Shown here: positions 19,002-59,680 of the stretch, piece after piece | Numbering within the stretch: the first letter of the stretch is position 1 | Layout: every line of letters starts with the position of its first letter | Assembly (NCBI GenBank): GCA_963847625.1 | Contig: CAWKAR010000034.1 | Span: forward strand, 1-64,000 | Direction of reading: 5' to 3' | DNA length: 64,000 bases | Origin: a candidate division FCPU426 bacterium | GTDB lineage: Bacteria; Oederibacteriota; Muellerivitia; Muellerivitales; Muellerivitaceae | Translations under genes and position numbers: made by a program | Notes under the pieces: generated by a model | What the model saw: the letters and a program-made list of their open reading frames with translations, nothing else | Database searches by the model: none | What the model was told of the DNA's origin: nothing

Positions 19002-20108
19002 TTATGGTAATGTCCTCAACACGGTCGTTCCTAAGCCCAAGTCCAACGCCAAAAGGAAAAACGCTACCAGGAGAAAATTGGAAGCCAATTCGTTATATTC
19101 CCAATGGGTTGTCACGGAAACTTCCCTTTTCTCCAATTTCGCGATTTCATCCAAAACTTCTTGCAAGGCGCGATTATCCGTGGCGGCGTAGGCTTTTCCA
19201 CCTGTTATTCGGGCGATTTCCCGTAAAGTAATCATATCGACCGGATCTTGCATGACAATTTCCCCGGTCCGCTGATCAATGAATGGCCCTATATGGCCGT
19301 CAGGATATCGCCCCATCATGGGCGTTCTTTTACTGCTTCCCATTCCAATCGCGTAAATTTTGACGCCCTGGCTTGCGGCGATCTTAGCCGCCTGGAACGG
19401 ATCCACCATGCCGCAATTGTTTTCGCCGTCCGTCATCAGGATGATGGCTTCATGGTTCGGCACTTCCGGTTTTTCATCGGTTTTACCACCCAGCCATTTG
19501 GAAAGTACTGGAGATTTATTAGCTCCCGCTTTCAACGCGCCTTTTTCCCCCTCTTTAAGGCGGTTGAGGCTGGAAACCAAGGCGTCACCGATGGCTGTCC
19601 CATCCAGCTTCACGGAAGAAACGTCCACGCTCTCCAGGAGCTTTTTCATGATCTGGACATCCTGGGTCAAGGGACACTGGGTGAAACTAATGCGGGCGAA
19701 AACGGTCATCCCCACCCTCGCGTTTTGAATCTTATCCAGGAATTCCGCGAGGAGCTTTTTTGCCGCCGTCACGCGGTTGGGTTTTAGATCCTGGGTGATC
19801 ATGGAACCTGATACGTCAAAGGTCACCCAAAGATCGGTGACTTCCTTTTTTTCCTCCACCTTTTTTTGTCCCGCTTGGGGCCTCGCGGCCGCGACGATAC
19901 AAAGAAAAATCACGAGAAAACGAAGGAGCCAGGGAAACCATTGCCCCGCGATGACCCCTGGGGTTTTTTCCACCAGGCGCGGATTTCCGATGAAGAAAGT
20001 GGTATGTTTGGCCCGAGAGGCGAAAAAGAAAAGTACCAGGCAAATAGGCAAAACCGGCAGCCAGTAAAGCCAAACCGGATTGGCGAAATGAAAACCCTGC
20101 AAATCCAT
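19002..20108 (-). CDS. BatA-like VWA domain membrane protein
   Basis: F.FANP.WL start, AAARPQ, DVSGSM...DLKPNR, DGTAIGDAL, LMTDGENN.G; C-terminal TM ending RTLP. Confidence 0.9.
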   Translation of the reverse strand: MDLQGFHFANPVWLYWLPVLPICLVLFFFASRAKHTTFFIGNPRLVEKTPGVIAGQWFPWLLRFLVIFLCIVAAARPQAGQKKVEEKKEVTDLWVTFDVSGSMITQDLKPNRVTAAKKLLAEFLDKIQNARVGMTVFARISFTQCPLTQDVQIMKKLLESVDVSSVKLDGTAIGDALVSSLNRLKEGEKGALKAGANKSPVLSKWLGGKTDEKPEVPNHEAIILMTDGENNCGMVDPFQAAKIAASQGVKIYAIGMGSSKRTPMMGRYPDGHIGPFIDQRTGEIVMQDPVDMITLREIARITGGKAYAATDNRALQEVLDEIAKLEKREVSVTTHWEYNELASNFLLVAFFLLALDLGLGTTVLRTLP

Positions 20109-45396: not shown

Positions 45397-45996
45397 CTAC
45401 TTGGAAATCATGAAAAGGGCCAGTTGGGCAAAGAGATTAGGGAAAAAGCGGACGCGCTTGGTCCCGTCCAAAAAGGCTCTTTTCTCGATTCGAATCCCCT
45501 TATTCCGGCAATAGTGGTGGAAATCCGAGATGGAAACCGAGTGCAGGTTGGGAGTCTCATACCACATGAAAGGAAGGGCCTTGGTAACAGGGGTTTTCCC
45601 CAGAAAAAAGATCTGAAGGCGGGATTTATAATAGGTGAAATTGGGAAACCCCACGATGACTTTCTTTCCGACCCGGAGCGCGCTATCCAACGCCCGGTCC
45701 ACATGCAGGATCTGCTGGAAGGTCTGGTCCAGGATGGCGTAATCAAAAGCGCCGTTCTGGTAGTCGGTCAGCCCGCCTTCGATGTCGTCGTGGAAGACGT
45801 TCAGGCCCTTGGCCACGCATTTGTAAATGGCCTGCTCGTCGATTTCCACGCCCTGGCCCTTCACGTTCTTTTCCTTGATGAGGTGGTAAAGCAGTTCCCC
45901 GTCCCCGCACCCCAGGTCCAGCACCGAGCTTCCCGGCTCGATCCACTCCAGGATGACCTTGTGGTCCGGCTCTAATCCGTTAGATTTCGTATTCAT
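45397..45996 (-). CDS. metW: Methionine biosynthesis protein MetW
   Basis: WIEPGSSVLDLGCGDGELL, IVGFPNF, LPFMWYETPNLH; follows metX. Confidence 0.94.
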   Translation of the reverse strand: MNTKSNGLEPDHKVILEWIEPGSSVLDLGCGDGELLYHLIKEKNVKGQGVEIDEQAIYKCVAKGLNVFHDDIEGGLTDYQNGAFDYAILDQTFQQILHVDRALDSALRVGKKVIVGFPNFTYYKSRLQIFFLGKTPVTKALPFMWYETPNLHSVSISDFHHYCRNKGIRIEKRAFLDGTKRVRFFPNLFAQLALFMISK

Positions 45997-47140
45997 CAGT
46001 CACCTGGTACCCGTGGAAGACTTTCTTGAGGAAATGTTTGATCAAATGGGTTTCCTCCGCCACCTCCAGCAGGAAGGCGTCGTGGCCGTAGTTGGAGTCG
46101 ATTTCGCAATAGCTGGCTTGCACCCCGGCGAGCTTGCAGGCCTTGACGATCTCCTGGGACTGGTAGAGTGGATAAAGCCAGTCGGACTTGAACCCGATCA
46201 CCAGCACTTTCAAGTTCTTCCCCCGGAGGGATTGCTGGAAAGGCCTCTCCGCCGAGGCGTCGAAATTGTCCATGGCCTTGGTGATGTAGAGATAGGAATT
46301 GGCGTCGAACCGCTTGACGAAATTGTCGCCGCGATAGCGCAGGTAGCCTTCCACCTCGAAATCCGCCGTGAATTTTTCCGCGCCCGTACGCGCCTTTTTC
46401 TGCCGTCCGAACTTCTCGGCCATGGAGGCGTCGCTCATGTAAGTGATGTGCCCCACCATGCGGGCCACCGAAAGGCCCTTGGCTGGGGACGGACCGCCGT
46501 AATAATTCCCGCCGTTCCAATCCGGATCCGCCATGATGGCCTGTCGTCCCACCTCGTCGAAGGCGATCTGCTGGGGGGAATGCTTGATGGCGGTGGCGAT
46601 GGGGATGGCGCTTTGAAGAGCCTCCGGGTATTTCGCCATCCAGGAAAGAACCTGCATGCCGCCCATGGATCCGCCGGAAAGCGAAAGCAGCTTTCGGATG
46701 CCCAAATGCTCCAAAAGCTGTTTCTGGCAATCCACCATGTCACCGATGCTTACCAGGGGGAAATCCAGGCCGTAAGGCTTGCCGGTCTTCGGGTTGGGGC
46801 TGGAGGGCCCTGTGGAGCCTTTGCAGCCCCCGATGATGTTCGAGCAGACAACGAAGTATTGGTCGGTATCGAAGGCCTTGCCCGGGCCGATCATGTCGTC
46901 CCACCAGCCCGGCTCCTTGTCCCCTTCGTGCCACCCGGCCGCGTGGGCGTCCCCCGAAAAAGCATGCGGGACCAGGATGGCGTTGGACTTCTCCGCGTTC
47001 AGGGTCCCGTAGGTCTCGTAAACCTGCGTGACAGGCCCCAGCCACTCGCCGTTCTCAAGGGTCAGCCCCTCGAACTCGAAGGACTTGGTCTCCACCAAGC
47101 CCAACCCCGGTCCTGCTTGCTTGTCCTCCACTTCGTTCAT
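45980..47140 (-). CDS. metX: Homoserine O-acetyltransferase
   Basis: [53 protein letters not shown]. Confidence 0.96.
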
Positions 47141-48072
47141 CCTTTCGCCTCCTCAAAAAGCCAGGTGGAAAGATAGCGTTCGCCCGTGTCTGGCACAATC
47201 ACGACAATCATCTTTCCCTTGTTCTCGGGCCGCTTCGCAACTTGGATCGCCGCCCAAACAGCTGCACCGCAGGAAATACCGGCCAGGATTCCTTCTTTCA
47301 GGGCCAGCTGGCGTGCTATATCGCCGGCATTCTCCTGGGTGACCCGGATGACTTCATCGATGATTTCCCGGTTCAGGACCGCGGGGATAAAACCCGCTCC
47401 GAGGCCCTGGATTTTGTGGGGCGCCGGAGACCCGCCTGACAACACCGGCGAGGCGTCGGGTTCCACCGCGATGGCTTTGAAGGAAGGTTTGCGTTTTTTG
47501 ATGACTTCCGCCACTCCCGTGATGGTGCCGCCCGTGCCCACCCCGGAAACAAGGATGTCCACCTTGCCGTCGGTGTCCGCCCAGATTTCTTCCGCCGTGG
47601 TCTTGCGGTGGACTTCCGGATTCGCCGGATTGTTGAATTGCTGGGGAATGAAGCTGTTGGGAGTCGTCTTGGCCAGTTCCTCGGCTTTCTCGATCGCCCC
47701 TTTCATTCCCTTCGGCCCTTCGGTTAAGACCAGCTCGGCGCCTAAAATTTTCAAGAGCTGACGTCTCTCCAAACTCATGGTTTCCGGCATGGTGAGGATG
47801 AGCTTGTATCCCTTGGCGGCGGCGACGAATGCCAGGCCGATTCCCGTGTTGCCGCTGGTAGGCTCAATGATAACGGAGTCCTTCTTGAGAACGCCGCGCT
47901 TTTCGGCGTCCTCGATCATCGCCAGGCCTATGCGGTCCTTCACGCTGGACAAGGGATTGAAGGATTCCAGCTTGGCCAGCACGGTCGCCACCGTCCCCTC
48001 GGCGATCCGGTTCAGCCGCACCAAGGGGGTACGGCCGATGGTCTTGGTTATATCTTCGTATATTTTAGCCAT
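47137..48072 (-). CDS. cysK: Cysteine synthase A
   Basis: [55 protein letters not shown]. Confidence 0.96.
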
Positions 48073-48080
48073 GTTTCACC

Positions 48081-49394
<1,314 letters not shown>

Positions 49395-49517
49395 TCATAT
49401 GTAGGCCCAGGATTATTTCCTGGGGTCTTGCCGGATTTTCCAGTGGACTGGTAAATCGACATTTTGCAGGTTAATCATGGGTCCGGTTCGTCCGGTCCCG
49501 TTTTCATTTCCCAAAAA

Positions 49518-49706
49518 CTAAATACCGGCTCCCCCTTCCAATTTCCAAACGTCATCGAAGCGTTTGCGTTCCGTCACCTCGATTTGGATGATTTTTGATT
49601 CATGGACCTTAATGGTGACCACCCCATACTCCAGGGACCCGACCGCGTTCCCAATGTCCCGGAGGATGGAATCATTCAGTAATTTCTTGTTTCCTTCCCG
49701 AGTCAT
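49518..49706 (-). CDS. YezD/DUF2292 (OscA-like) small protein
   Basis: I..AV..LEYGVVTIKVHESKIIQIEVTERKRF signature; heads a sulfur amino-acid operon; GGGGAG RBS. Confidence 0.85.
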   Translation of the reverse strand: MTREGNKKLLNDSILRDIGNAVGSLEYGVVTIKVHESKIIQIEVTERKRFDDVWKLEGGAGI

Positions 49707-49725
49707 TGGCTTCTCCCCTTTTTCT

Positions 49726-49856
49726 AAAAAAAATCCCAAACCACTTTGGAGCGGTTTGGGATTATGAAAGTCTCAATAATCTTTCGCCGCTTTAGCACCC
49801 TGTTTTTCCATTTTTGACGGGAAACCGCAAAATGGAACCGGCCGGAGCAAGTTGGT
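49726..49856 (-). ncRNA. Putative cis-regulatory RNA leader, proximal copy, with intrinsic terminator
   Basis: CCAACUUGCUCCGGC-[hairpin]-AACAGGGUGCUAAAGCGG-N-GAGAC, then terminator AAUCCCAAACCGCU/AGUGGUUUGGGAUU-U6. Confidence 0.75.
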
Positions 49857-50023
49857 TCAATAAAGGGTGTTCCAATCATTCAATTACTAGTTGGAATCAC
49901 CCTGAATTGCCAGGGGTGAGAAAAAAATATTTCAATTTTTTCCCGAAAAAGCCTTCATTTTCGGCTTTTCATCCGCCTGTTAAAGTCACGCCGTAAAACC
50001 TTCGTTTTAAAATTTTCTGCCGC

Positions 50024-50160
50024 AAAACAAAAAACCCGCGTCGCTTTTTAAGCGGCTCGGGTTTAGGAGTGTCTCGTAAACTTTTACCGCTTTAGCTCCC
50101 TGTTGATCCCGTCTCCTTGAAAGCTTCGTCAAGGGCGGGAAACGCCGGGGCAAGTTGGAC
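50024..50160 (-). ncRNA. Putative cis-regulatory RNA leader, distal copy, with intrinsic terminator
   Basis: CCAACUUGCCCCGGC-[hairpin]-AACAGGGAGCUAAAGCGG-N-GAGAC, then terminator CCCGAGCCGCUU/AAGCGACGCGGG-U6. Confidence 0.75.
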
Positions 50161-50188
50161 CTTAACGCCTCGCGTTTAACTTGATTGA

Positions 50189-50217
50189 AGTCTACCGTTG
50201 GGTCAAAGATTTGTCAA
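50189..50217 (-). promoter_or_regulatory. Sigma70-type promoter of the yezD-met-cys operon
   Basis: Minus strand TTGACA-17 bp-TAGACT, about 30 bp upstream of the distal leader. Confidence 0.75.
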
Positions 50218-50275
50218 CGGCTGGACAAATTATTTATGTCGAATTTTAATTTCACTACTCAGGAATAAAAAGTAA

Positions 50276-50458
50276 CTAAGTTTCGCTTTCGGAACCGCCT
50301 TCCAGGATTTCCATGGTTTTCTCTAGGAAACCGTCAGGCAGGACGCGTTTTTTCCTGGCCCTTATCCAATCCCGGGCCCACATTGAATGGCGATTCAGGA
50401 AGTTTAAATCCGCTTGATCCAAGCGGCTCAACCAATCCTCAAAAGATTGATAATCCAT
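50276..50458 (-). CDS. Small hypothetical protein
   Basis: GAGG RBS, then MDYQSFEDWLSRLD (60 aa) downstream of the preceding gene. Confidence 0.45.
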   Translation of the reverse strand: MDYQSFEDWLSRLDQADLNFLNRHSMWARDWIRARKKRVLPDGFLEKTMEILEGGSESET

Positions 50459-50507
50459 GGAGCCGTCCGGCCTCAATAATGAATTTTTCGCTTTGGCGTA
50501 CTCCGAA

Positions 50508-53452: not shown

Positions 53453-56400
53453 TTATTTCAGGATTAATACCTTAAACACCTTGTTCATCCGTTGGGTTCC
53501 GCTCATTTCCACCCTTAGGTAATAAAGTCCATCCGACACTTGTTTGCGGTATTGATCCTTCAAATCCCATTCGATGATTCCATCGTTCGTGAGCTGTATT
53601 TCCCCACTCACCACCTTCCGGAAGGACAACGTAAATACAGACCATTTCACGACGGTCGTCCCTGGTACCCACACATGCACTGACACAGGGCCATTCACCA
53701 CGGGGTTTGGATAGGGACCCACGCATGTTGGCTGGGCAACCGGTGTCGACGTAGTGGTTGCCGCCGGCGCCGCCACATCCACTACCGCGCCCGTAACCGG
53801 CAATCCGCTGATATTTACAGGCTGGCCGTTAGTTCCCGCCGCTTCCACTGCGCTTACTTGGTATGTCCCCGACGCCGTGATAGAGAATCCGGTCACCACC
53901 GTGAAGGTCACGCTTCCGGAGCCGACCAAAGGATCGTTAAAGGTAAAGGTGGCCGTCCCACTGTTTAAGCTGCCATTGGCAACCAGTACACCGTTTGCAA
54001 ATAGCGTTACAGGGTTTATATCAATTGGGTTTCCAGTTCCCGATGCCGCTAGACTCAAGCTGGTCAGGGTGACAGTGGTTGAACTCGGATTGGTAAATAG
54101 GACTTGGAGAACCGTTACTCCCGTTGCGCCGGGAATCTGGGTCGTCGGGGCCGAGATAATGGGAGTGGCCAATACGGCGACGATGGTTTTCGTGCTGGTT
54201 GGTGTGACTGTGGGCGTTGCTGTAAAGGTCCAGGCCGGCGTCAAGGTCGGGGTTGGGCTCAAGGTGTTTGTAGGCGTGTTCGTGGGTGACTGAGTCCCCG
54301 TCAAGGTGCGGGTTGGCGTGAGGGTATAGGCGGGTGTATTGGTCGGGGTATTCGTAGGCGTAGGGGTTGGTGTCGTCGTCGGAGTGGGAGTAAATGTGGG
54401 AGTAGGTGTCTTCGTCGGTGTGTTTGTGGGTGTCGGCGTGGATGTTGTCGTCGGTGTGGGAGTAAATGTGGGAGTGTTTGTCGGAGTGGGTGTCGGGGTC
54501 GGGCTCAAGGTGTTTGTAGGCGTACTCGTGGGTGACTGAGTCCCCGTCGGACTGAAGGTCGGCGTCAGGGTAATCGTTGGAGTGTTTGTCGTGGTCAGAG
54601 TAGGGGTTATGGTAGGCGTTGGGGTCGAAGTAGGCGTGGGCGTCCTCGTTAGCGTTGGCGTCGGGGTCGGGGTATTGGTCGACGTGGGAGTAGGAGTTGT
54701 TGTAAGCGTGAGCGTTGGTGTTGGAGTTGGCGTTCTCGTCGGTGTGTTCGTCGGTGTCGACGTGGGTGTTATTGTCGGGGTCGGGCTTGGGGTGTTCGTG
54801 GTCGTTGGTGTCAAGGTATTGGTTAACGTAGGAGTTGGGGTTGTTGTAGGCGTGGGCGTCCTCGTTGGTGTTGGCGTAGTCGTCGGGGTAGGCGTGGGAG
54901 TAGACGTGTTGGTAGGCGTCGGGGTTGGAGTCCGGGTCGGAGTGACCGTGGGAGTGTCCGTGGGTGACTGAGTCCCCGTCGGGCTGAGGGTCGGCGTAGA
55001 GGTAATCGACGGGGTATTTGTCGGGGTCAGTGTATGGGTTATGGTAGGAGTTGGGGTCGGAGTAGGTGTGGTTGTCCTCGTTGGCGTTAACGTCGGGGTC
55101 GGGGTATTGGTTGGCGTAGGAGTAGGGGTTGTTGTAAGCGTAGGCGTTAGTGTAGGAGTTGGTGTTCGCGTCGGGGTGTTCGTTGGTGTCGGCGTGGGTG
55201 TCATCGTTGGAGTCGGGCTTGGCGTGTTCGTGAGTGTCGGTGTCGAGGTATAGGTTAGTGTAGGAGTGGGGGTTGATGTAGGCGTGAGTGTTGGTGTTGG
55301 AGTTGGCGTTCTCGTCGGTGTGTTCGTCGAGGTCGGGGTGGGTGTAGTCGTCGAGGTCGATGTTGGCGTATTAGTTGGCGTTGTCGTTGGGGTAAGTGTG
55401 GGAGTGGGAGTAGGCGTATTAGTAGAAGTTGGGGTCAGGGTCCGGGTCGGGGTGACCGTGGGAGTGTTCGTGGGTGACTGAGTTCCTGTCGGGCTGAGGG
55501 TCGGCGAGGGGGTGACAGTTGGAGTGTTTGTTGGGGTCGGTGTAGAGGTTATGGTAGACGTTGGGGTTGGAGTCGATGTGGGTGTCCTCGTCAGTGTGTT
55601 TGTGGGCGTAGGGGTCGGAGTATTTGTCGCCGTGAACGTAAGTGTCGTCGTTGGGGTCGGAGTGGGTGTGGGCGTCCTTGTCAGGGTGTTCGTTGGCGTA
55701 AGCGTAGATGATAACGTCGGGGTCGGCGTAGGGGTTACGGTAGACGTGGCTGTTAGTGTGGGTGTAGGAGTTCTTGTGGGCGTATACGTCGAGGTTGGAG
55801 TAGGTGTCGGCGTCAGAGTTGGGGTTGGCGTATTCGTTGACGTTGTTGTTGGGCTAGACGTGGAAGTGGGAGTCAATGTGGGAGTAGGCGTTCTCGTCGG
55901 TGTCGGGGTGGGTGTCGCCGTAGGGGTCTGACTTAGCGTGTTCGTGGACGTCGGAGTCGGGGTATTGGTCGGGGTAGGAGTGGGGGTTGTTGTAGGCGTG
56001 AAAGTTGGTGTGGGAGTAGGTGTTCTGGTGAGCGTGTTCGTCGGGGTTGAGGTGGGTGTCATCGTCGGGGTGTTCGTCGGTGTGGGTGAGGATGTAATGG
56101 TAGGAGTGTTCGTGGGCGTGGGAGTCGGTGTCCGGGTCAAGGTGACCGTGGGAGTATTCGTGGGTGACTGGGTGCCCGTCGGGCTGAGGGTCGGGGTTGG
56201 GGTGATCGTTGGAGTGTTTGTTGGGGTCGGTGTAGAGGTTATGGTAGACGTTGGGGTTGGAGTCGATGTAGGTGTCCTCGTCAGTGTGTTTGTGGGCGTA
56301 GGAGTCGGAGTATTCGTCGCCGTGAACGTAAGTGTCGTCGTTGGGGTCGGAGTGGGTGTAGGCGTCCTGGTAGGCGTGTGGGTCGACGTTGGCGTTGTCG

Positions 56401-59400
56401 TTGGGGTGGAAGTATAGGTAGGTGTAGGCGTAGGGGTTGTTGTGGGGGTTGGCGTGGGTGTTGGAGTAGCGGTCCTCGTCGGCGTAGACGTGGGTGTGAT
56501 CGTAGATGTGGGAGTCAGGGTAACCGTCGATGTCGGTGTAAATGTTATGGTGGATGTATTCGTAGGTGTCGGGGTCGGTGTCCGAGTAGGGGTGGAAGTT
56601 GGGCTATTCGCCTGTGTGGGAGTGGGCGAAACTGTTGGTGTCAAGGTCGGGGTGCTTGTTGGCGTTGGGGTGGGTGTCCGGGTCGGGGTGATAGTGGGTG
56701 TATAGGTTGACGTAGGAGTGGGCGAGATTGTCGGTGTCAAGGTCGGAGTGCTTGTTGGCGTTGGGGTGGGTGTCCGGGTCGGGGTGATAGTGGGAGTATT
56801 AGTCGGCATGGGGGTGGTCGAGACTGTTGGTGTCGGAGTCGGGGTGTTAGTCGGAGTGGGCGTTGGCGTCCGAGTTGGAGTAGGTGTGAGACTATTCGTC
56901 TGAGTGGAAGTAGGCGAAACAGTCGGCGTCCGGGTCGGGGTGATAGTGGGAGTATTAGTCGGCGTGGGGGTGGTCGAGACTGTCGGTGTCGGAGTCGGGG
57001 TGTTAGTCGGAGTAGGCGTTGGCGTCCGGGTCGGGGTGTTCGTGGGTGTATAGGTTGACGTAAGAGTGGGCGAGACTGTCGGCGTCGGAGTCGAGGTGTT
57101 AGTTAGAGTGGGTGTATTCGTCCGGGTCGGGGTGGAAGTTGGGCTATTCGTCTGTGTGGGAGTGGGCGAAACTGTTGGTGTCAAGGTCGGGGTGCTTGTT
57201 GGCGTTGGGGTGGGTGTCCGGGTCGGGGTGTTCGTGGGTGTATAGGTTGACGTAAGAGTGGGCGAGACTGTCGGCGTCGGAGTCGAGGTGTTAGTCAGAG
57301 TGGGTGTATTCGTCCGGGTCGGGGTGGAAGTTGGGCTATTCGTCTGAGTGGAAGTAGGTGAAACTGTCGGCGTTCGGGTCGGAGTGATAGTAGTTGTATA
57401 GGTCGACGTAGGAGCGGGCGAGACTGTCGGTGTCGGGGTCGGGGTGCTCGTTGGCGTTGGAGTGGGGGTCCGGGTCGGGGTGTTCGTGGGTGTATAGGTT
57501 GACGTAAGAGTGGGCGAGACTGTCGGCGTCGGAGTCGAGGTGTTAGTCAGAGTGGGTGTATTCGTCCGGGTCGGGGTGGAAGTTGGGCTATTCGTCTGAG
57601 TGGAAGTAGGTGAAACTGTCGGCGTCCGGGTCGGAGTGATAGTAGTTGTATAGGTCGACGTAGGAGTGGGCGAGACTGTCGGTGTCGGGGTATTGGTGGG
57701 GGTATTTGTTCGAGTGTTGGTTATAGTATTGGTCATGGTTAGTGTAGAGGTTCTGGTAAAGGTCGGTGTGTTCACGGGCTGGGTAAAGGTCCATGTCGGG
57801 GTATAGGTATAGGTAAAGGTGCGGGTTTGGGTGAATGTATAGGTATAGGTGGGAGTGGCCGTAAGACAGACCATGGTCGTAGAGATGGTATTGCTAGTCA
57901 CGGGGCCCCCTCCCTGCCATGAGATCGACCCGTAATCCGTCATCACCTGGCAGGACTGGGTGGCAGAAAAACCATTATTTTGAACGTATAAAGGTATCGT
58001 CACGCAGGCCCCCCCGGGGATCGAGCTGACCGTCCAAGTCGTGGGGAAACTTTGGTTTAATGGGTTAATCGTGATGGGGTTTCCTCCCACCGTTACCGTC
58101 CAGGAACTGTAATTGGGCCCATCGAAAGTCATCCAATTGTAGTTCGTAGTCACGTCGGTCACGGTCGCCGGAGCCGGCGCAGATGATCCCGATGCGTTAC
58201 ACAGGGTAAAGGTCAGGGTGATGGGACCTCCGGTACTGTAACCCGATGTCGGCCCGCCGGTAGTCTTGGTAAAGGTGATGCTTGGCGGTTTAGGCGTGGC
58301 GGTAATAGTCGGGGTCGGAACGGGCGAACTGCACGCGGCATAAGGACTGGAAAGCCAGGTGGATACCGCCGATCCCCAGGTACTGTTGGTGACCCAGCCG
58401 GTCAGAAGGTTGGGGCAGGAGTTGGTGGACAGGGACCAAGCCGTGCCGCCCATCACTCCGCTTGTGCCATCGATCCAGGATTCGATAGCGGAGTCAAAAG
58501 AGCTGTTATCCTGGTTGCAGTTGGTATAGGGGCCGAATTCACCTACAAAAGCCGGATGACCGGCCAGGAGGGAACTGGGCACCTCGGCGTTCCAACTAAC
58601 CGCCGAATTGCCGTCATTGCTCCCGTAAAGATGCACACCCATCATAATCCCGTTTCCGACATTGGTTACGGAACCGGCGGGATAGCCGTTCAAATTGGCG
58701 CACCAGTGCAAGCCCCCCAAAACGCAGACATTGTTAGCGCCGGCGGACCTCACCGCATTCAATAGCTTTTGCATGCCGGGCGTGGTAAAGGAAGCGCCTC
58801 CGAGCGTGCCGCCGTTGAGCCAAGTGTTGTAGCCGGTCGTATCGGTGACGACCGGCGGGCCCAGGTTATCGTTGCCGTTATCGTAGGGTTCGTTGTAAAG
58901 GTCGAAGAGGACGGCCGGATTATTTGCATAAGCCGCCGCAACCGAACTCCAAAAGGTGACTGCGTTTTGATCCGCCATGGCTTGCTGAGCTGTGGCTCCC
59001 CCCCATCCGCTGCCGCAGGGGGCTGAGGCCGTGGAAGAAGTTCCTGACCAATGCAGGTCCAAAAGCACGTAGACGTTTTGTCCCGAGCAATAGCTGACAA
59101 TGGAGGACACGATTCCCTGGTACGCGGACGCCGTGGGCGACCCGTTTCCGTTAGAACAACCGAACCAAAAGTCCTGGGCGAGTGGAAGCCGGATGATGGA
59201 GCATTTCCAGCCTGTCACCGCCTCCTGCGCCAACTGCAGGGTATCACCTCCATTGCCGAAACCGCCTCCGCTTATGGGGCCGTAACCAGTTGGGGAAAAT
59301 TCCAGGCCATCGACATCCACACCTTTTAAGTGCACAACGCAACTGCCGCTAGTTTCAAGGTTGGCCCCCACGACTGAAAGGGCCGACGGTGCCGCATGGA

Positions 59401-59680
59401 TCGGCGTGGTTGAATGAAGCCAGAGCAGGAACCCCATGGCCAATGCCAACAGGATTGCTTGAGTTTTTTGATTTTCAAAAAACGATTTTATTTGACAATA
59501 AAAAAAAGCGTTAAATGCGGAAACATTGCTTTTTTGGATAGAAGAGATAACTTGTTGTTGGATTTGGCCGAAAGAAACTAAAACGCTTTTACGGGATTTC
59601 ACGGGGGTACGGCTCAAACCATAATTGATTTGGCTTTGTTTATCTTTTCCTAAAACCAATTTTATAATGGTCCAATTCAA
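53453..59680 (-). CDS. Giant secreted GH5 glycoside hydrolase with about 1200-aa Thr/Pro stalk, Ig-like module and T9SS-like C-terminal domain (start uncertain)
   Basis: [34 protein letters not shown] (acid/base), HLY, FVGEFG (nucleophile), TAWS; C-terminal PYPNP...VFTLSFRKV...WDLKD...SDGLYYL...KVLILK. Confidence 0.9.

Follow-up and report, generated by a model that had tools for sequence, protein, structure and literature searches.

The leader of the DUF2292-metY-cysK-metX-metW operon raises the question of what kind of RNA switch it contains and which signal this switch reads. The leader is located on the minus strand of the window (the whole 64,000-nt stretch of DNA analysed here), between a promoter candidate (50217-50189) and the DUF2292 gene, which is followed by metY, cysK, metX, and metW. 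The initial annotation described a tandem attenuator for sulfur status, responsive to a ligand or a protein and possibly of an undescribed class. Each of the two copies is likely to be a riboswitch that senses SAM through a SAM-II/SAM-V-type aptamer and turns transcription off. This reading is supported by sequence, conservation, the pairing pattern, mutually exclusive folds, and gene context, from which we infer the ligand, the triplex, and actual termination.

Anatomy of the tandem leader

The genes and RNA elements of the locus are summarized in Table 1. The promoter candidate TTGACA-17-TAGACT is present as first annotated, and the same hexamers occur upstream of the orthologous copy in genome G001; taken alone it is weak, with 2 sites found against 1.5 expected. 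The transcription start predicted from it would fall a few nucleotides before P1 of copy 1. The DUF2292 protein of the window was named YezD in the initial annotation.

Table 1. Features of the sulfur operon and its leader, in window coordinates.
Feature	Position	Strand	Remarks
Sigma-70-type promoter candidate, TTGACA-17-TAGACT	50189..50217	(-)	10/12 consensus letters
Aptamer copy 1 (distal), SAM-II/V-type pseudoknot	50087..50177	(-)	model R1 75.8 bits (copy 1 in training set)
Copy 1 P1	50177-50172 with 50145-50140	(-)	
Copy 1 third strand, GAGGC-GUU-AA	50171-50162	(-)	G instead of first pocket U; then 3-nt linker
Copy 1 CC-AAC-UUGC-CCC-G	50158-50146	(-)	
Copy 1 P3 hairpin	~50140-50107	(-)	
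Copy 1 tail, AAC-A-GGG-A-GC-U-AAA-GC-GG	50104-50087	(-)	
Intrinsic terminator 1	50024..50064	(-)	5' arm CCGC can instead pair with aptamer tail GCGG
Aptamer copy 2 (proximal)	49787..49994	(-)	begins directly 3' of terminator 1
Copy 2 P1	5' strand 49993-49990 with 49842-49839	(-)	
Copy 2 third strand, GUGAC-UUU-AA	49989-49980	(-)	then insert
Copy 2 structured insert, 124 nt	49856..49979	(-)	turn between third strand and P2a
Copy 2 CC-AAC-UUGC-UCC-G	49855-49843	(-)	
Copy 2 P3	49837-49806	(-)	tail 49804-49787
Intrinsic terminator 2	49726..49763	(-)	14 pairs and U tract; CCGC in 5' arm
DUF2292 (YezD/OscA-like) small protein, 62 aa	49518..49706	(-)	PF10055, E 1.3e-12
metY, O-acetylhomoserine sulfhydrylase	48081..49373	(-)	TIGR01326 above cut-off
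cysK, cysteine synthase A	47137..48072	(-)	TIGR01139 above cut-off
metX, homoserine O-acetyltransferase	45980..47140	(-)	NF001209 above cut-off
metW	45397..45996	(-)	TIGR02081 above cut-off

Both copies of the motif CCAACUUGCYCCGGC...AACAGGGWGCUAAAGCGG noted initially are present on the minus strand (50158-50087 and 49855-49787), and they are the only two in the genome. The inner hairpins of both copies pair and fold (-15.7 and -12.6 kcal/mol, z -3.8 and -4.3), as do both terminators (-15.5 kcal/mol, z -2.8; -21.0 kcal/mol, z -7.1), of which a terminator scan called the proximal one only. The AGCGG/CCGCU complementarity, proposed as an antiterminator, likewise holds in both copies (-15.3 and -11.2 kcal/mol), with a helper hairpin inside antiterminator 1. 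The extent first given to the elements was right in the 3' half and wrong at the start: copy 1 begins at 50177, and copy 2 at 49994, across an insert. GAGAC, which had been listed as a conserved part, occurs in only 8 of 124 copies.

The insert of copy 2 folds (-40.0 kcal/mol, z -4.3) into a long hairpin and a three-way junction that has CAGG/CCUG as its closing helix. In the G001 orthologue of copy 2, a 5-bp P1 and a consensus third strand are found across a 121-nt insert. A local third strand just 5' of CCAAC was considered for copy 2 and rejected, because this stretch pairs inside the insert hairpin and model R1 shows no P1 there. A third R1 match in the window (19526-19593, 21.8 bits) was also rejected; it has no UUGC and lies inside coding sequence.

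Several other features of the region and genome were observed. A palindrome of the type TTNCCAGT-NN-ACTGGNAA lies at 49437-49454, between the DUF2292 gene and metY, is kept in G001, and is a candidate operator for a sulfur transcription factor. The pattern occurs four times in the genome against 0-3 times in five shuffles (weakly above chance), and one such palindrome is located 116 nt upstream of a second cysK at C3:119152. This second, closely similar cysK copy (G000:C3:119152 region) has no riboswitch. Positions 53453-59680 of the window (-) hold a 2075-aa ORF in which a putative glycoside hydrolase domain is followed by a very long linker of Thr-Pro repeats.

Conservation and distribution of the motif

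An exact two-block pattern of the motif matched in 11 of 41 genomes. With its relaxed form there were 109 matches, spread over 33 of 99 phylum genomes, and a reversed control pattern produced 3, so the motif is not a product of chance; it is found in 28 of the 30 other genomes of the window's family, with up to 10 pattern matches per genome. A GTDB scan yielded 50 stretches, in records titled Elusimicrobia/Elusimicrobiota, Ca. Firestonebacteria, Acidobacteria, Ca. Obscuribacterium, Proteobacteria, or uncultured bacterium, and a metagenome scan yielded at least 134. Of 151 genomes in the phylum of G099, 9 had a match to model R1, with 7 of them judged real after inspection; in the order of G100 the model matched in 4 of 13 genomes, and across 151 genomes of the phylum of G100 it gave no match outside G100 itself. 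One locus (L327) is an R1 match at 21 bits. Two R1 matches without the core (L334 and L335) were rejected, and of the 88 stretches that a loose core pattern found in viral contigs none was counted, the best of the 80 scored reaching 18 bits with R1. Among titles and abstract starts in the literature there was no paper on the motif; the supplements of PMC9481103 may hold such sequences among SAM-II doublets.

Two sets of copies were used for counting. The 124-copy set derives from 125 distinct matches parsed from genome loci, with one match (L082) dropped and two corrected by hand. The 216-copy set takes all loci except the viral ones and the first loci numbered among these.

All 124 copies have an upstream 5' part comprising a P1 strand, a third strand of a GAGGC-type start and UUUAA, and a linker. 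Then follow CCAAC-UUGC-YCC-G, the second P1 strand, a P3 hairpin of free sequence, and AAC-A-GGG-W-GC-U-AAA-GC-GG. Judged from these letters, each copy is an H-type pseudoknot with the predicted SAM-II/SAM-V pocket UUU…CC-NNN-UUGC…GC-U-AAA-NN-GG. The third strand, which lay outside the genome search patterns, reads UUU in 113 copies and GUU in 11; its start is GAGGC in 72, GGGC in 26, and GGGA in 10 (counts before the two hand corrections). The linker measures 1-6 nt in 104 of the 124 copies and 36-128 nt in the rest. The P3 region folds in 123 copies, and AA follows it in 122, a position partly fixed by the search patterns.

The homologues also show that P1 covaries. Four P1 pairs are present in 119 of 124 copies, in 9 haplotypes. 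With 103 of the short-linker copies aligned in MAFFT (L079:2647-2773 omitted from the 104), 97.8% of P1 cells are paired and three of four pairs show changes in both strands. The structure as a whole has 98 cells with two-sided changes; shuffles have 33 and slid controls at most 50. These are counts of sequences from related copies and not of events. The outer P2 pair, G-C, is replaced by A-U and U-A in 4 cells. The remaining P2 pairs hardly vary and all pocket positions are invariant in the alignment; because the search patterns dictated part of these positions, they are little evidence of pairing. P2a was unconstrained in the metagenome pattern. Among the matches listed (136 distinct), 73 met independent criteria of P1 and a G-rich L1; P2a is paired in 72 of these against 11 of the 63 others, and two of the 72 are U-A compensations.

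Some copies depart from the consensus. CCUAC stands for CCAAC in 4 of 124 copies (L023 1880, L042 1726 and 1874, L082 2714), and in each of them the fifth position of UUUAA is U as well; this co-change from A/A to U/U suggests that a non-canonical contact may exist across the turn. L331 and L332 carry UUGG...CCUAAA where the consensus has UUGC...GCUAAA; the second core pair appears to have been swapped in a compensatory way.

Relation to SAM-II, SAM-V, and other known switches

In a T-box, the bulge sits in a nested antiterminator. The window has no Rfam match to a T-box, and GGG of the motif pairs upstream in P2, not in the antiterminator. SAM-I (RF00162) gave no match at E<=1 in the window's own genome (150 of 371 candidates scored), and its four-way junction core was not found. 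The view that the leader is neither SAM-I nor T-box is thus borne out. More generally, no Rfam 15 family reached its gathering threshold in the window, and at E<=10 positions 49500-50500 gave only six weak unrelated matches. No Rfam SAM model matches the copies tested, even weakly: SAM-II (RF00521) does not match those of the window and reaches its cut-off in none of 31 family genomes, SAM-V (RF01826) has no match at E<=10 in the own genome, and SAM-II long loops (RF01726) has none at the locus at E<=10. Two weak RF00521 matches in family genomes lie inside coding sequence and were rejected.

A different picture is obtained once the 5' half is added to the core. In the parts of the SAM-V structure paper used here (RF01826; metY structure 6FZ0, Huang and Lilley 2018, PMC6061858), the aptamer runs from P1 through the third strand U8-U9-U10, a short turn, and the P2 strand A18-U19-U20-G21 to P1, and then through a general P3, stacked As (A-minor), and U47-A48-A49-A50 to a 2-bp P2a. 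According to the same parts, SAM pairs with U47 and binds A50 with its amino-acid end, and the U20:A48.U9 triple holds its sulfonium. All pocket nucleotides so described have counterparts in the motif, in the same order and register. The two also have in common the H-type pseudoknot, the short P1 and UUU third strand, the UUG/U-AAA pocket, the variable P3 followed by AA, and the 2-bp P2a. Whereas SAM-V is translational in that description, its P2a hiding the Shine-Dalgarno sequence, P2a of the motif would hide an antiterminator strand; moreover, P2 of the motif is longer and C-G rich, and the turn accepts inserts of up to 128 nt. The start codons in the window lie at least 80 nt downstream of the aptamers, behind terminators, with no overlap of P2a and Shine-Dalgarno sequence. 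At another locus (L336, G251:C8), the tail GAGG of a form with a short P3 is directly followed by the ATG of a metH-like reading frame, and this is probably a translational version.

The likeness to SAM-II (RF00521, SAM_alpha) extends to the core register, the promoter just before P1, downstream terminators, Met genes, and terminator-bearing tandems. In the RF00521 consensus, CC-NNN-UUGC and GCUAAA-NN-GG are spaced as in the motif and UUGC is preceded by C; at the corresponding position 18, C is found in 205 of 216 copies. SAM-II is described with promoters just 5' of P1, frequent terminators, and six invariant uridines in the portion of Corbino 2005 (PMC1273637) used here. If these uridines are mapped, as we infer, to U8, U9, U10, U19, U20, and U47 of the partly consulted PMC6061858, copy 2 has all six, as do 204 of 216 copies overall, and copy 1 has five of the six; U19, U20, and U47 were fixed by the search patterns. 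The hallmark of SAM-II, P1 and pseudoknot P2 (H-type), is found in the motif as P1 covariation and P2/P2a pairing, and so is the context, with a metY-type gene first in 13 of 76 cases and a terminator in 109 of 124. The excerpt of Sherlock 2022 (PMC9481103) used here counts 44 SAM-II doublets, in some of which both aptamers are followed by a terminator. In one locus (L234) the variant (58.5 bits with R1) and a terminator are directly followed by a canonical RF00521 member (43.5 bits, cut-off 36). This tandem (L234:417-620) has a terminator-like hairpin after each aptamer and precedes a short ORF that matched none of the families tested.

The motif differs from SAM-II in having P3, which the passages drawn from PMC6061858 give as absent there, as well as extra CCC-G/C-A-GGG pairs between core and P1, the GAGGC third-strand start, the invariant GCGG tail, and a broader sulfur regulon. 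Forms of the motif lacking P3 precede metH-type genes (L331, L333) and a SAM hydroxide adenosyltransferase (SAM hydrolase) gene (L332). SAM-II long loops, or long insert (RF01726; Weinberg 2010, PMC2864571, consulted in part), accepts optional inserts at the same two sites as the motif, given in its supplement as after the UUU strand and after P1, and has a longer L1, as in the motif. That family is Bacteroidetes and marine; in the alignment rows used, its first insert is at most ~20 nt, and there is no CCC/GGG extension. None of the strings of the motif occurs in aptamer context in the eight supplement files of PMC2864571.

With the 5' half included, sequence and register of the core agree with those of the SAM-II/SAM-V pocket, and the motif is therefore best read as a SAM-II/V variant rather than as the undescribed class at first considered possible. 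It belongs to no Rfam family in the form in which these are modelled, and its mode of action is probably that of a transcriptional SAM-II/SAM-V riboswitch. That the tandem elements would represent a variant absent from the Rfam catalogue, in lineages known mainly from metagenomes, is well supported by these comparisons of sequence.

Terminator switch, regulon, and ligand

A terminator lies 3' of 109 of the 124 copies, and 15 have no called terminator. CCGC follows 115 copies (shuffle mean 24, maximum 37), mostly 23-36 nt past the tail, and in 102 copies CCGY is placed in the 5' arm or loop of the terminator. CCGC is constant, whereas its partner within the terminator is not, being C or U at one place and often mismatched; this is expected if CCGC is constrained by the invariant aptamer tail. 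For a transcript truncated directly past CCGY, the antiterminator is the MFE structure in 110 of 118 copies. Because the GG that closes the tail is also the P2a strand, a ligand-stabilised P2a and the antiterminator would be mutually exclusive, and it follows that SAM would turn transcription off.

The proposed mechanism is as follows. P1 would form first, after which the UUGC-YCC-G strand would pair with the 3' C-A-GGG-W-GC-U-AA strand to give an elongated P2. SAM would be bound at the bulged U and the U:A.U triples, and the UUU third strand would dock. The SAM-bound state would close the 2-bp P2a (CC/GG), sequestering the GCGG tail and leaving the downstream CCGC free, and the terminator could form. 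Without SAM, the tail would pair with the emerging CCGC and RNA polymerase would read through. Two such units in series may give a steeper and tighter shut-off of DUF2292-metY-cysK-metX-metW.

It is unlikely that only one copy functions in this leader, i.e. that the insert-split copy 2 is a near-constitutive terminator or that copy 1 with G at the U8 position (G8) no longer binds. The third-strand start of copy 2, GUGAC, is unique (1 of 124). At equilibrium copy 1 favours the antiterminator and copy 2 the terminator (-25.2 against -15.4 for the forced antiterminator), so that read-through at copy 2 must rest on the order of folding (kinetic switching). However, the insert is self-contained and folded, and inserts of 100-128 nt occur at the same site in 12 of 216 copies with flanks intact; in the 9 of these 12 that were aligned, the closing helix is kept and little else is common. 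G8 is found in 12 of 216 copies, copy 1 included, of which five are the first copy of metY-operon tandems, and it is kept across several genomes. A single functional copy would concern this locus only and is compatible with the SAM reading for the family.

The next element downstream is another copy in 46 of 124 cases, an ORF in 76, and neither in 2; runs of three occur in the 216-copy set. The 76 first downstream ORFs comprise porin O/P (16), MetY-type (13), 1-Cys peroxiredoxin (12), DUF2292 and DsrE-like (4 each), sulfate-binding-type and DUF3034 (3 each), ExbB (2), and one each of cysK, cysE-like, nitrite/sulfite reductase family, and methyltransferase, while 15 have no family. Family searches with 37 selected proteins, of which 30 were taken from among the 48 ORFs of three islands and 7 from elsewhere, added a sulfate ABC binding protein, CysT, sulfonate-type ABC transporters, TonB receptors, and a family 2A encapsulin with cysteine desulfurase; some unrelated genes, e.g. 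ribBA, were also among them. metK is first in none of the 76 cases, and the genome's own metK has no motif copy. The regulon leans to sulfate uptake and cysteine synthesis.

Particular loci show how these genes are arranged. L344 (G004:C1:1012000-1031000) and L340-L341 (G023:C24) are sulfur islands with repeated doublets and triplets, and behind the copies are ExbB/D-TonB units, encapsulin with cysteine desulfurase, and a porin with a sulfate ABC transporter. In the G100 group (L048, L064, L337), the switch precedes a 90-100 aa protein without Pfam family, a candidate for a sulfur or SAM-related protein.

The gene context and the GCGG/CCGC switch agree with the ligand-type tandem attenuator for sulfur status first proposed; a role for a protein, through YezD, is unlikely. 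Control of antitermination by YezD/DUF2292 or another regulator that binds the RNA is very improbable. A DUF2292 gene is 3' of the leader here as in the four cases counted, and the very high sequence conservation would also suit a protein site, but the other 72 first downstream ORFs are not DUF2292, which makes a YezD role unlikely, and the conserved letters coincide with a known small-molecule pocket.

The absence of metK and the G8 copies provide the main opening for a different ligand. On the same scaffold and terminator switch, all copies or the G8 subtype could sense another indicator of sulfur status, such as a SAM relative, cysteine, or a sulfate-pathway compound, which we consider improbable. 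It would suit a regulon of sulfate/sulfonate ABC transporters, cysK, cysE, a nitrite/sulfite reductase-family gene, 1-Cys peroxiredoxin, and encapsulin with cysteine desulfurase, as well as the invariant GAGGC/CCC/GGG extension, which is absent from the RF00521 consensus; a SAM-I variant with changed ligand is reported to exist (PMC10853860). Against it, all SAM-contacting positions are kept in the 204 copies with six uridines, the variant stands in tandem with a canonical SAM-II, and P3-less forms precede metH and SAM hydrolase genes. It is likewise rather doubtful that the motif is a separate class on a SAM-II scaffold that reads another sulfur signal for an RNA-only sulfur-starvation regulon, in which G8 or the 100-128-nt insert would provide a second input and turn arrays like the present one into two-input logic gates.

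Read as a SAM switch, the motif is a SAM-II/V-type subfamily missed by current Rfam models, in which doublets and triplets are common. It joins SAM-V architecture to a conserved transcriptional platform and shows how a 2-bp P2a could drive termination; the sections of the SAM-V structure paper used here (PMC6061858) give the mechanism for translational forms only. How much the pocket tolerates could be probed readily with the natural variants at U8 and in the turn. The motif also ties genes of unclear role to sulfur supply, namely OprO/P-type porins, DUF3034, DsrE-like proteins, ExbB/D-TonB units, 1-Cys peroxiredoxin, and the family 2A encapsulin. In some uncultured bacteria, this variant stands before much of the sulfur-supply machinery.
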